From positions 18,738 through 82,737 of the forward strand of contig JBAZEU010000003.1 in the NCBI GenBank assembly GCA_041653755.1: 64,000 bases of DNA, read 5' to 3'. Origin of the DNA: Minisyncoccota bacterium (GTDB lineage Bacteria; Patescibacteriota; Minisyncoccia; UBA6257; UBA9933). Positions 47,584 to 50,778 of this stretch are shown piece after piece (positions within the stretch are counted from its first letter, which is position 1; every line of letters begins with the position of its first letter). A program made the position numbers and the translations under genes. The notes beneath the pieces are model-generated. The model searched no databases. It had not been told where the DNA came from and worked only from the letters and a program-made list of their open reading frames with translations.

Positions 47584-47657
47584 TGGGGGATCGTCTAATG
47601 GTAGGACAGTGGCCTTTGAAGCCATTAATCGGGGTTCGAATCCCTGTCCCCCAGCCA
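47584..47657 (+). tRNA. tRNA-Gln (anticodon TTG), CCA encoded
   Basis: acceptor TGGGGGA/TCCCCCA, D-arm GTCT/GGAC, anticodon stem GTGGC/GCCAT loop CTTTGAA, T-arm CGGGG-TTCGAAT-CCCTG, discriminator G + CCA. Confidence 0.85.
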
Positions 47658-47697
47658 TCAACATTTTTTATCCCAAGGCCGTATCACATAAATTTAA

Positions 47698-47731
47698 AAA
47701 GGGCGATCGTGATGACCGCCCTTTGTTTTTT
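47698..47731. terminator. bidirectional intrinsic terminator (tRNA-Gln / helicase gene)
   Basis: aaagggcg-atcgtgatgac-cgcccttt with T-runs on both strands. Confidence 0.65.
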
Positions 47732-47757
47732 ACCTCCTTTCAATATTTGAAGTTATC

Positions 47758-49803
47758 TTACTTTTCTTTGCCTAAGAATTTCTTCCAGCCTGGAAAATCT
47801 TTGTACGTTCTATCAGGGGCAGAAGGCAATTTGCAATCTTGCTTGTATCTTTTAACGTATTCTCTGGAGTTTAATGCTTTCAATTTTTTCGCAATCTCGC
47901 TAGCCTCTTGCCACGTCCGATAGAAGTCTGTTCCGAGAAAGATTTTCCAGCCTGGGAAATCTTTGTATTGCCTATTAGGTTGGCGACGAAGCCTACGATC
48001 TCGCTTATACTTTTGAAAATATTCTGATTGAGTTAATATTCCCAATTTTTTCGCAATCTCGCTAGCCTCTTGCCACGTACCATAAAGCCCTCTTTCTCCC
48101 CTTAGAAAAACTGCGAAGCCAGGGAAATCTTTGTACAAGTCTTCCGGATGATGACAAAGCATACGATCTTTCTTGTACTTCTTAAGATATTCTGATTTGC
48201 TTGAGATGCCTAATTTTCTCGTAGTTTCGCCTGCCTCTTGCCATGTTGCATAGAACACTCTTTTTGTTCCCAGAAAAGCTGCAAAGCCAGGGAAATCTTT
48301 ATATGTGTAAGGCCTGCCAGGAAGCTTACTGTCTTGTTTACGCTTTCTCGCATATTCCTCTAAACTAGATATCCCCAATTTTCTCGCAGCCTCGCCTGCT
48401 TCCTGCCATGTTGTATAGACTTCTTTTGTTCCGAGAAAAACTTTCCAGCCAGGAAAATCTTTATATATTTCATTGGGGCAAGCAGGTAATTTATAATCTT
48501 GTTTGTACTTTTTCCCCCATCTGTATTCTGTAACGCTAGATATTCCTAACTTTCTCGTAGCTTCGCCTGCCTCTTGCCAGGTCTTATAGAAAGGCTCATT
48601 AATTCTTTTGATCACATTGAGGATATCAACCTGATCATCGGAAAAAATGAAGTCAAAGGCTTTACCGCTGACGTGAAGAACCTCTTTGTCTAAAACAAAG
48701 TGGTTGCCAGCGAACTCTTTGACTCTCCCGGCCATTTCCTTGACCATAGCTAATCTTTCACAATTAGCCACAAAATCAAGAACAACGACTTTGGATTTAC
48801 CAAGAACCTTTCTTAATCCTCGGCCAAGTTGCTGGTAAAAGATAGTTCTGGAGTCAGTGCAACGTAGGAACACAATTACTTCGACATCAGGTATATCAAT
48901 GCCCTCGTTGAATTTATTCACAGCTAAAATATATTGCTGTGAATCTTCACGGAAGACACTGAGTCTTCTTCTGCTCTCTTTCTCCTGTATGCCTGAATGA
49001 TAAGTTAAGGCGTTAGGAAAAAAAGATTTGAAGGTTTCCACGTGTTCTATCCCTTCACAGAAGATAACTGCCTTTTTGTCTGTTCCTGCGTATTGCTGAA
49101 TCTGGCGGGCAATCTCATCGTCTCTTCGCTTAATAAAGATTGTTTCGTTAAGCTGTTTGATGTAGATACGTCTGCCCTTTCTCAAAATTCCCTTAAGAAT
49201 CTTCTTAAGTTTCCAGTGGCTTAACCGATCGTTGAGTATGTGATACTCAACCTGGGTCAGCCAACCCTTGGCAATTGCTTCTTCTAAAGAATAATTAACT
49301 ATCTCTTTGCCAAAAAATTCTCGGATATCTTTTAAATCCATTCTGTCAGGAGTAGCGGTGATTCCGAGAAGTTTTTTCGGCTTGAAATAGCAAATTACAT
49401 CTTTAAAAGTAGAAGCCTGACCGTGATGAGATTCATCAACAATGATAAAGCCGAACTCATCTTCAAAGAAAACATGTTTCCAGTTCCTATAGGTCTGAAA
49501 AGAAGCAAAGACAACGTTGGCTTGATCGGCATTAAAATCTTTACTTGAACCATAGAAAGGTTTAAGTATAACTTGTTCGCCCAAAACTTTTCTGAACTCA
49601 AGCATTGCCTGATCGAGAATCCCGTTGTTGTGACAAAGGAATAATCCTTTGTGACCATTATTTATTTCTTTCTGGGCCCAGAAAGCAGAAACGATAGTCT
49701 TGCCTAGTCCGGTAGCCATAACTACCAATGCGGTTGCTTTTTCTTTGAAAGCATTAACGATCAAATCAAGAGCCTTTTGCTGATAATCAAACAAATTCAT
49801 CAT
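47758..49803 (-). CDS. SF2 helicase (ResIII/XPB-like DEAH) with five C-terminal ~55-aa tandem repeats
   Basis: motif I ATGLGKT, II DESHH, III TATPDR, VI QQLGRGLR; C-terminal repeats TWQEAGEAxRKLGISSxxEYxxKYKxDxKLPxxPxxxYKDFPGWxxFLG x5 (47758-~48590). Confidence 0.75.
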   Translation of the reverse strand: MMNLFDYQQKALDLIVNAFKEKATALVVMATGLGKTIVSAFWAQKEINNGHKGLFLCHNNGILDQAMLEFRKVLGEQVILKPFYGSSKDFNADQANVVFASFQTYRNWKHVFFEDEFGFIIVDESHHGQASTFKDVICYFKPKKLLGITATPDRMDLKDIREFFGKEIVNYSLEEAIAKGWLTQVEYHILNDRLSHWKLKKILKGILRKGRRIYIKQLNETIFIKRRDDEIARQIQQYAGTDKKAVIFCEGIEHVETFKSFFPNALTYHSGIQEKESRRRLSVFREDSQQYILAVNKFNEGIDIPDVEVIVFLRCTDSRTIFYQQLGRGLRKVLGKSKVVVLDFVANCERLAMVKEMAGRVKEFAGNHFVLDKEVLHVSGKAFDFIFSDDQVDILNVIKRINEPFYKTWQEAGEATRKLGISSVTEYRWGKKYKQDYKLPACPNEIYKDFPGWKVFLGTKEVYTTWQEAGEAARKLGISSLEEYARKRKQDSKLPGRPYTYKDFPGFAAFLGTKRVFYATWQEAGETTRKLGISSKSEYLKKYKKDRMLCHHPEDLYKDFPGFAVFLRGERGLYGTWQEASEIAKKLGILTQSEYFQKYKRDRRLRRQPNRQYKDFPGWKIFLGTDFYRTWQEASEIAKKLKALNSREYVKRYKQDCKLPSAPDRTYKDFPGWKKFLGKEK

Positions 49804-50014
49804 TTTCCACCTCTCCTTTTGTCATTTTAAATTTTGAAAGTACTTCTTAAACTAAAAAAGCCTAATATTCTTGTAGGCTATTCCGTATACAATAACAGGA
49901 AATATTTATTGTGTCAATTTTAATCCAAAGCTTATTCTAATCACTTAGAAAAATTACTAATGGTCTTATTATAATGAGTACCAAAACGGGGCATACAGCA
50001 ATTAGGAATGGAAA

Positions 50015-50050
50015 ACAAAAGCCGCTTAGCAGATTTACTGCAAAAGCGGC
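50015..50050 (-). terminator. intrinsic terminator after P-loop kinase gene
   Basis: minus strand aagccgctt-N16-aagcggctt followed by TTTT. Confidence 0.5.
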
Positions 50051-50068
50051 TTAATGTCTATGGATTAC

Positions 50069-50629
50069 TCAAATCAAAGAAATAAGTTCCTTTTTCGGAT
50101 CGATCCTGATAACTTTATCGAAGCCGTCAGAATTAATCTGTGATGCATTCTCATGAAAGAATTCGTAATCATGAGATGGGGCATCCTTGGAAAAAAATAC
50201 AAACCCTTTTCCTTGCCGTGCTTTCATTTCTTCAGCCTTTGCGATTCCTGGCTTTTCCCAAAACCATATATTTACAGTCTTGAGCGAAGTCACGAAATAA
50301 AGGGCTACAATACGAGTAGCTCCGTACTGTCTCAATTTTTTTACAAGAGACCTTCGCTCCTCACTATAGCCAGTCCAGGTATCAAGAATTAATTTTAGCC
50401 CCGTTTGAGTTGATAATTTACGCCTCAGAAGGCGATACATAATCTCTTGGGCAAAATACTGTCCTCCAGTATACGGGCTCATATGAACCGAACCGAAAAG
50501 GCGTACAAGAATCTCATCGCGACTCACTGCAGATATTTCCGGTTGTCTTTCGATAACCTGCTTAGCATAATGACTTTTGCCTGATCCTCGTTGACCAACC
50601 AACAGATAAACAGTATTATTTCTCCCCAT
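50069..50629 (-). CDS. P-loop NTPase / small kinase (AAA_33 / zeta-toxin / polynucleotide-kinase-like)
   Basis: Walker A LVGQRGSGKS at N-terminus; 186 aa; Walker B-like hydrophobic stretch LILDTW. Confidence 0.5.
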   Translation of the reverse strand: MGRNNTVYLLVGQRGSGKSHYAKQVIERQPEISAVSRDEILVRLFGSVHMSPYTGGQYFAQEIMYRLLRRKLSTQTGLKLILDTWTGYSEERRSLVKKLRQYGATRIVALYFVTSLKTVNIWFWEKPGIAKAEEMKARQGKGFVFFSKDAPSHDYEFFHENASQINSDGFDKVIRIDPKKELISLI

Positions 50630-50778
50630 GTGGTATCCTCCTTTCTCTGTATGGATTAACTGATTTTAGATGAACTATTTATATTATAACTATTATTAAA
50701 GAATTAGGCAAATTTTATTCCTCCTCACATAAAATTTGTTTTAAGCCAAAAATAATCTTACTAGAAACAACCAGTTAT

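Follow-up and report, generated by a model that had tools for sequence, protein, structure and literature searches.

The solved structures closest to the protein considered here, a 681-amino-acid (aa) helicase encoded in 64,000 nucleotides (nt) of a Minisyncoccota genome (assembly GCA_041653755.1, contig JBAZEU010000003.1, positions 18,738 to 82,737; this whole stretch is called the window), are those of SauUSI, RadD, a fragment of the type I restriction subunit HsdR, LlaBIII and XPB, all of them superfamily 2 (SF2) enzymes of the double-stranded DNA (dsDNA) translocase type. SauUSI (7CLG) is a type IV ATP-dependent restriction endonuclease, which carries a PLD nuclease at its N-terminus and a target-recognition domain at its C-terminus; RadD (YejH; 6JDE, 7R7J) is nuclease-free and comparable in length to the window protein. 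The C-terminal part of the protein belongs to another catalogued group, the Pfam family PF14882 (INT_rpt, 'Integrase repeat unit'), whose proteins NCBI names 'integrase repeat-containing protein' and on which our literature search found only its listing by a survey of repeat modelling (PMC8078820).

The window protein joins a core of the first kind to an array of the second, and is a member of a large, already catalogued and functionally uncharacterised Patescibacteria family. An earlier inspection of the letters alone, here the sequence-only reading, had grouped it with a neighbouring 186-aa kinase as a horizontally acquired module, possibly one of defence. The account that we find best as a whole, and towards which we lean with limited confidence, is that of a stand-alone, nuclease-free SF2 dsDNA translocase with a basic INT_rpt array, representing a Patescibacteria family whose role would lie in information processing, at or with RNA polymerase or the replisome, and unrelated to the kinase.

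The helicase core and its INT_rpt array

The helicase is read from the minus strand and comprises three parts:

47758 to 49803, minus strand: the SF2 helicase open reading frame (ORF), 681 aa
48754 to 49803, minus strand: SF2 ATPase core, residues 1-350, made up of a ResIII/DEAD RecA1 and a Helicase_C RecA2 domain
48589 to 48753, minus strand: linker and small domain, residues 351-405, between RecA2 and the array, as placed by a full-length AlphaFold2 (AF2) model
47761 to 48588, minus strand: five tandem INT_rpt (PF14882) units, residues 406-681 (Pfam E 3e-25)

Pfam assigns ResIII to residues 2-154 (115.8 bits) and Helicase_C to residues 240-331 (49.3 bits); both RecA-like domains are visible in the AF2 model (pLDDT 85), and motifs I, II, III and VI are intact, as Walker A ATGLGKT, motif II DESHH, motif III TATP and motif VI QQLGRGLR, which places the protein among SF2 helicases and translocases. 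The sequence-only reading had picked out this frame and three of these motifs (ATGLGKT, DESHH and QQLGRGLR) correctly, and they prove to be conserved: among 63 homologues no change is seen at G33, K34, E123, H125, Q324 or R327, and conservation at D122 and T148-P151 is 90% or higher. In the model the region between core and array consists of a long helix, a disordered loop (residues 368-374) and a strand-strand-helix element, and the alignment consensus shows a conserved block there, VxGxxFxFxF..VDIL. An identical protein has been deposited from a metagenome-assembled genome (MAG) labelled 'Candidatus Paceibacterota'.

Ranked by sequence, the nearest solved cores are those of SauUSI (E 3e-41, over residues 19-350), RadD (E 6e-22) and HsdR (E 5e-21), and comparison of folds with Foldseek ranks the solved relatives in the same way (E 1e-19 for SauUSI). 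The likeness to restriction enzymes ends with the core. SauUSI begins with a nuclease and ends with a recognition domain, whereas the window protein opens with the Q-motif region of its helicase, shows no nuclease family in the Pfam output and ends in INT_rpt units; it thus has neither the N-terminal PLD or Mrr nuclease nor the C-terminal modified-DNA recognition domain of a type IV enzyme, and domains of the DUF3427 type are seen only in distant relatives, such as that at locus L070. Against the NCBIfam model for R subunits of the EcoAI type it scores 135 bits where the cutoff is 550; it has no HSDR_N nuclease, and neither hsdM nor hsdS is found among its named neighbours (dnaX, the AAA_33 kinase and two Peptidase_M14 genes). 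PADLOC matched the ATPase core only, to mREase_IV (positions 240-562 of a 953-position model), PbeA and type I R subunits, with no nuclease or effector present; having neither a full-length match nor partner genes, it is not a known anti-phage defence system, and the defence role that the sequence-only reading thought possible gains nothing from the scan.

Resemblance to RadD raises a different possibility, that of a RadD-like repair or recombination helicase substituting for repair helicases missing from the reduced genomes of Patescibacteria. The two proteins share the SF2 core fold (TM score about 0.45 over the core), RadD being the second-best solved relative; the NCBIfam RadD model is matched at E 2.6e-34, and several loci of the family have dnaX, dnaG, dnaB/recR or DprA-like genes as neighbours. 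That match amounts, however, to 118.5 bits against a cutoff of 720, similarity ceases at about residue 350, past which nothing matches RadD and the tail is an INT_rpt array in place of the C-terminal region of RadD, and a role in repair would leave the fusions to sigma factors described below unexplained. We regard this as a lesser rival and a decidedly unlikely one.

The array was taken by the sequence-only reading for five near-identical repeats of about 55 aa, of non-standard type and resembling DNA-binding modules. Number and length stand: a hidden Markov model (HMM) made from the protein's own five units counts five in tandem, of 52-57 aa each, and the repetition can be detected in the DNA as well, with a period of 162-171 nt. 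Near-identity does not, the units being 47-69% identical pairwise (mean 58%); nor are they undescribed, since the protein scores 88.7 bits with PF14882, for which the cutoff is 26.5, in four stretches, and its five units match the family model. The array is strongly basic (net charge +26, isoelectric point 9.8; the mean among homologues is +3 per unit). An AlphaFold model of two units, based on an alignment of 40 sequences (pLDDT 93.5), predicts for each unit two 10-residue helices followed by two short ones, and the units are thus plausibly small, helical, nucleic-acid-binding modules. A sequence-profile search of the PDB for solved relatives of the repeat gave nothing below E 1; compared with predicted viral structures, the repeat model matched parts of a Bodo saltans virus DEXDc helicase (E 2e-4) and of a Marseillevirus helicase (E 0.075). 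We also considered INT_rpt as a diverged form of HNH_repeat, and rejected this because hhalign gave the relationship a probability of only 2.5%.

What INT_rpt units are attached to is informative. A profile of a unit pair retrieved 4162 cluster representatives among 1.84 billion proteins, and we surveyed partner domains in the 32 proteins longer than 1000 aa found among the 150 best-scoring representatives. In 27 of the 32, proteins of the tyrosine-recombinase type, the array lies N-terminal to an Integrase_2 recombinase domain (21 of these also match Phage_integrase), and the other five are helicases; a few carry Mrr nuclease domains. The recombinases thus bear their arrays in front of the catalytic domain, the window protein behind it. 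Small proteins consisting of INT_rpt units only also exist. Because every partner domain in this set of 32 acts on DNA, and in view of the net charge of the array, we infer that the array binds DNA.

The family and its links to sigma-70 and clamp-loader genes

Nearly all of the top 120 database matches to the helicase (at least 545 bits) come from Patescibacteria and show the same Pfam set, many of them under the NCBI name quoted above. The 63 full-length homologues have five (n=33), six (20), seven (8) or eight (2) units each. Cores 54-71% identical to that of the window helicase carry instead arrays of the treble-clef zinc ribbon DUF4379 (PF14311), and cores 40-43% identical carry arrays of HNH_repeat (PF18780); these sister helicases share with the window protein the core-linker-array layout and modules of about 55 aa but differ in the family of the module, INT_rpt and HNH_repeat being unrelated according to hhalign. 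Mixed arrays occur (P0090, L010, L011; P and L numbers denote proteins and loci of our survey), and the three types of array intermingle in a rough neighbour-joining tree built from the cores. Mrr, PLD or MTES nucleases appear in more distant relatives of the core, which resemble type IV restriction enzymes. A scan of IMG/VR found relatives at the level of the core only, at 43% identity or less, with none reaching through the repeats, and a viral origin was rejected on these grounds. One locus with a mixed array holds something further: directly upstream of the DUF4379-type helicase of L011, in a MAG labelled Gammaproteobacteria, are genes for proteins of 1475 aa (940-5367) and 714 aa (5563-7707) that match the repeat query (E 4e-275 and 5e-88) and not the helicase core.

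A scan of a genome collection with a single protein and overly specific patterns returned 14 loci; the neighbourhood survey as a whole covers about 21 distinct loci of the nuclease-free clade, a small sample. The neighbours are mostly housekeeping genes whose positions vary among genomes, and clustering of the flanking ORFs yields few recurrent families, among which sigma-70 and clamp-loader genes stand out. The sigma link takes two forms. In P0045 (L022, 6001-9381; seen in two independent assemblies) and P0042, a single ORF encodes a complete sigma-70 factor (regions 1.2, 2, 3 and 4) N-terminal to the helicase and its INT_rpt array; the sigma parts are 32-39% identical to the sigma genes that lie adjacent to helicases at other loci. 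Such adjacency is found at three of them: in L025 the order is dnaG, rpoD, tRNA-Asn, helicase; in L012 (7995-13313, a Saccharibacteria MAG) a sigma-70 gene stands between two INT_rpt helicase paralogues of 590 and 637 aa; and in L031 a primary-type sigma gene and the helicase are divergent neighbours. A small ORF beside the L032 helicase matched a sigma HMM at E 1e-6 and was not counted, because it has no Pfam support. Members with a sigma link do not cluster in the family tree but are scattered across it. Clamp-loader genes, dnaX or holB-like, adjoin the helicase or lie close to it in the window, in L027 and in L030.

By our own estimate, with some 1000 genes in the genome, any one gene would have a primary sigma gene beside it far less often than in 1% of cases, so that chance is an unlikely explanation for sigma links at 4 of about 21 loci (the three adjacencies and the L022 fusion), even if the sample is small and uncontrolled. 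Fusion and adjacency together suggest a role at or with RNA polymerase.

From these elements the following mechanism can be proposed. The five basic helical INT_rpt modules would give the protein multivalent attachment to DNA, while its ATP-driven motor would move along duplex DNA or protein-DNA complexes or remodel them; across the family the same kind of core would be served by interchangeable C-terminal arrays, be they INT_rpt, DUF4379 zinc ribbons or HNH_repeat. Where this machine would act is a best guess: at or with RNA polymerase or the replisome, because of links seen at the level of the family, namely the sigma-70 fusions, the adjacency to rpoD and the adjacency to dnaX or holB.

The neighbouring kinase and the slot beside tRNA-Gln

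The genes and signals around the helicase are as follows:

46476 to 47579, plus strand: dnaX, 4 nt upstream of tRNA-Gln(UUG)
47584 to 47657, plus strand: tRNA-Gln(UUG) (ARAGORN; Rfam tRNA model, 65.6 bits)
47698 to 47724, minus strand: intrinsic-terminator-like hairpin 3' of the helicase, with an 11-bp stem and a U-run (terminator scan)
49917 to 49889, minus strand: promoter-like site for the helicase, TTGACA-17-TATTGT with a TG extension (a consensus match only)
about 50013 to 50059, minus strand: terminator-like hairpin and U-run directly 3' of the kinase stop (-23 kcal/mol, z -5.4)
50069 to 50629, minus strand: AAA_33 P-loop kinase-like ORF, 186 aa, a neighbour of the helicase and not its partner

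In the direction of transcription the kinase ORF (50629 to 50069) comes first, then a spacer of 265 nt, then the helicase (49803 to 47758); the sequence-only reading had the two genes rightly on one strand, with their order reversed. The helicase stop lies 100 nt from the convergent tRNA-Gln(UUG), beside which it had been placed correctly, and the hairpin between them is predicted to fold at -17.5 kcal/mol (z -5.2). Terminators do not bracket the two genes as a pair, as had been proposed: they bracket the helicase, the kinase having its own, and a matching hairpin is present 3' of the kinase homologue in L105. Because the spacer holds in succession this kinase terminator, the promoter-like site and a Shine-Dalgarno sequence, AAAGGAGAGG, read directly from the DNA immediately 5' of the helicase ATG, kinase and helicase are two transcription units, the helicase gene being self-contained, and their co-transcription is unlikely.

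The kinase is much as first described, an ORF of 186 aa with a Walker A motif (GQRGSGKS); it belongs to Pfam AAA_33 (44.9 bits, cutoff 27) and not to the Zeta toxins (15.3 bits, cutoff 22.3), its best solved relative is Pnkp1 (E 0.015), and it has no significant PADLOC match. Its own relatives form a tight group of Parcubacteria proteins of about 186 aa, 50-74% identical to one another. That the two adjacent, same-strand genes were co-acquired at tRNA-Gln as a functional module is highly improbable on several counts. With the window kinase as query, phmmer (E<=1e-3) run on 104 helicase loci matched only the window's own genome and none of the other 103; conversely, none of five kinase loci from relatives has an INT_rpt helicase beside the kinase, which in L105 directly abuts tRNA-Gln and dnaX; a terminator separates the genes; and the pair has no flanking repeats except one 12-nt match at chance level. 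A locus that might have spoken for the module is L003, where an AAA_33/Zeta-type gene lies directly downstream of a distant helicase homologue, but that is the side opposite to the kinase of the window, and the gene was rejected as a relative of it (25% identity over 93 aa, E 0.003). The kinase is a separate conserved family which lies, by happenstance, across a variable slot from tRNA-Gln.

This slot is seen when relatives are aligned on their conserved parts. The dnaX-tRNA-Gln(UUG) unit recurs in L105, L109 and L030. L105 has a kinase 69% identical to that of the window, then tRNA-Gln(UUG) and dnaX in opposite orientation, with 218 nt where the window has the helicase; in L109 (3572-7021) the interval between the AAA_33 kinase and tRNA-Gln/dnaX is filled by Peptidase_S41, His_Phos, three small ORFs and DpnI, and the interval from kinase to tRNA-Gln/dnaX is therefore a variable islet. 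It follows from these contexts that dnaX and tRNA-Gln are conserved together as a unit and that the kinase is a second conserved landmark, whereas what lies in between varies; within this slot the helicase is an insertion-or-deletion polymorphism. The synteny comparison that the sequence-only reading had called for thus finds the helicase present or absent beside tRNA-Gln, though not together with the kinase, which stays where the helicase is missing.

In L105 a 3' half of tRNA-Gln, about 45 nt long (6725-6779), adjoins the intact tRNA-Gln on the kinase side, at the place that the helicase occupies in the window. It may be the remnant of an old integration or excision, and hints at past events there.

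Of the horizontally acquired element first envisaged, then, the variable slot at tRNA-Gln stands, without an integrase, a tRNA duplicate or an anomaly of composition. The window is AT-rich (37% GC), and its 61 long ORFs give baselines of 0.370 (standard deviation 0.027) for GC and 0.338 (0.042) for GC at third codon positions (GC3). Helicase and kinase are slightly richer, as had been claimed, with GC of 0.399 and 0.408; the difference is weak and within the range of the window, GC3 z-scores being +1.2 and +0.4, all GC and GC3 z-scores of the two genes being at most 1.4, and neither gene an outlier. No integrase was found in the window and no partial copy of tRNA-Gln within 44-53 kb, and a search for att-like flanking repeats gave only coding repeats and short matches at chance level, such as the 12-nt pair at 47684/50725. 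The marks of a genomic island integrated at a tRNA gene, namely an integrase, a directly repeated tRNA 3' end and an unusual composition, are missing here; the slot is variable nonetheless.

A variable islet beside a tRNA gene is also where a defence or conflict gene might be sought, and the helicase could be a restriction-type translocase acting on invading DNA alone or with an unlinked effector. The core relatives named above (SauUSI, mREase_IV, PbeA, the R subunits of type I, to which those of type III can be added) fit this explanation, as do the Mrr, PLD and MTES nucleases of farther ones; integrases and homing nucleases are where arrays of INT_rpt, HNH_repeat and DUF4379 are typically found; paralogues, unit numbers from 5 to 8 and the swapping of arrays suggest rapid turnover; L105 has nothing in the slot and L109 has DpnI there; and the sigma fusion of L022 has as neighbours genes for a ParB_N-methylase, an SNase, a PD-(D/E)XK protein and HsdR. 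Set against this are the absence of a nuclease domain and of a conserved effector neighbour, the restriction of PADLOC matches to the ATPase core, the housekeeping neighbours at most loci, the normal composition, and IMG/VR relatives that stop short of the repeats. We think a defence function improbable on the whole, and yet a rival to be taken seriously: the core is restriction-like, the array types are typical of mobile elements, and a relative has DpnI in the slot.

The region has some further features. Directly upstream of the kinase (50779-52565, minus strand) are two tandem paralogous Peptidase_M14 genes whose products have N-terminal membrane anchors. Beyond dnaX, the sole compositional outlier near the locus is an ORF of 218 aa with a signal peptide (44450-45106, minus strand; GC 0.46, GC3 z +3.3), which is adjoined by a 415-aa membrane ORF (45147-46394, minus strand); neither has a Pfam or PADLOC match. 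At 57819-57912 (minus strand) lies a tRNA with a GCA (Cys) anticodon that is unusually long, 87-94 nt; its D-loop is enlarged and its variable arm comprises some 13 nt. The Rfam tRNA model gives it no more than 36.4 bits, an odd result for a tRNA-Cys.

A possible role in information processing

Several points weigh against the reading that we favour, of a nuclease-free translocase working at or with RNA polymerase or the replisome. Among characterised cores, those of restriction enzymes are nearest, and DpnI occupies the local slot of a relative, with which an origin in a conflict system fits equally well. There is no sigma gene near the window helicase itself, and about 17 of the 21 sampled loci have neither sigma nor clamp-loader adjacency, in a neighbourhood sample that is small and not phylogenetically controlled. 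The literature on PF14882/INT_rpt, PF13009, PF14311 and PF18780 yielded nothing relevant, and neither did that on helicase-sigma fusions in Patescibacteria.

A narrower form of this reading can nevertheless be stated. Nuclease-free helicases with INT_rpt, DUF4379 or HNH_repeat arrays might serve the sigma-70 holoenzyme as an accessory factor throughout Patescibacteria, as ATP-driven dsDNA translocases that would aid promoter opening, or the clearance or recycling of RNA polymerase, and that in some lineages have been fused to a full-length sigma factor; they would then be functional analogues of XPB/TFIIH or of RapA. In this specific form the proposal is speculative, and we consider it unlikely. 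The resemblance to XPB/Rad25 in TFIIH and to RapA concerns a possible mode of action and not membership: XPB too has an SF2 core of the dsDNA-translocase type, to which the similarity is weak (E 4e-10 to 1e-9), and members of the window family are fused or adjacent to sigma-70, but there is no orthology (NCBIfam 42 bits, cutoff 610), and it is gene fusion and adjacency that point to association of this family with RNA polymerase.

Since the helicase-repeat-kinase system first claimed for it does not exist, the locus itself is ordinary. Its remaining interest lies in the family to which it leads, large, unstudied and abundant in Patescibacteria, and in a module, INT_rpt, that is attached only to enzymes acting on DNA. 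That primary-type sigma factors are repeatedly found fused or adjacent to helicases of the family supplies a concrete, testable hypothesis and is the most specific lead to come from this analysis; if it is true that an ATP-dependent translocase assists transcription initiation in these reduced genomes, the finding would be truly interesting both for the study of bacterial transcription and for the biology of Patescibacteria.

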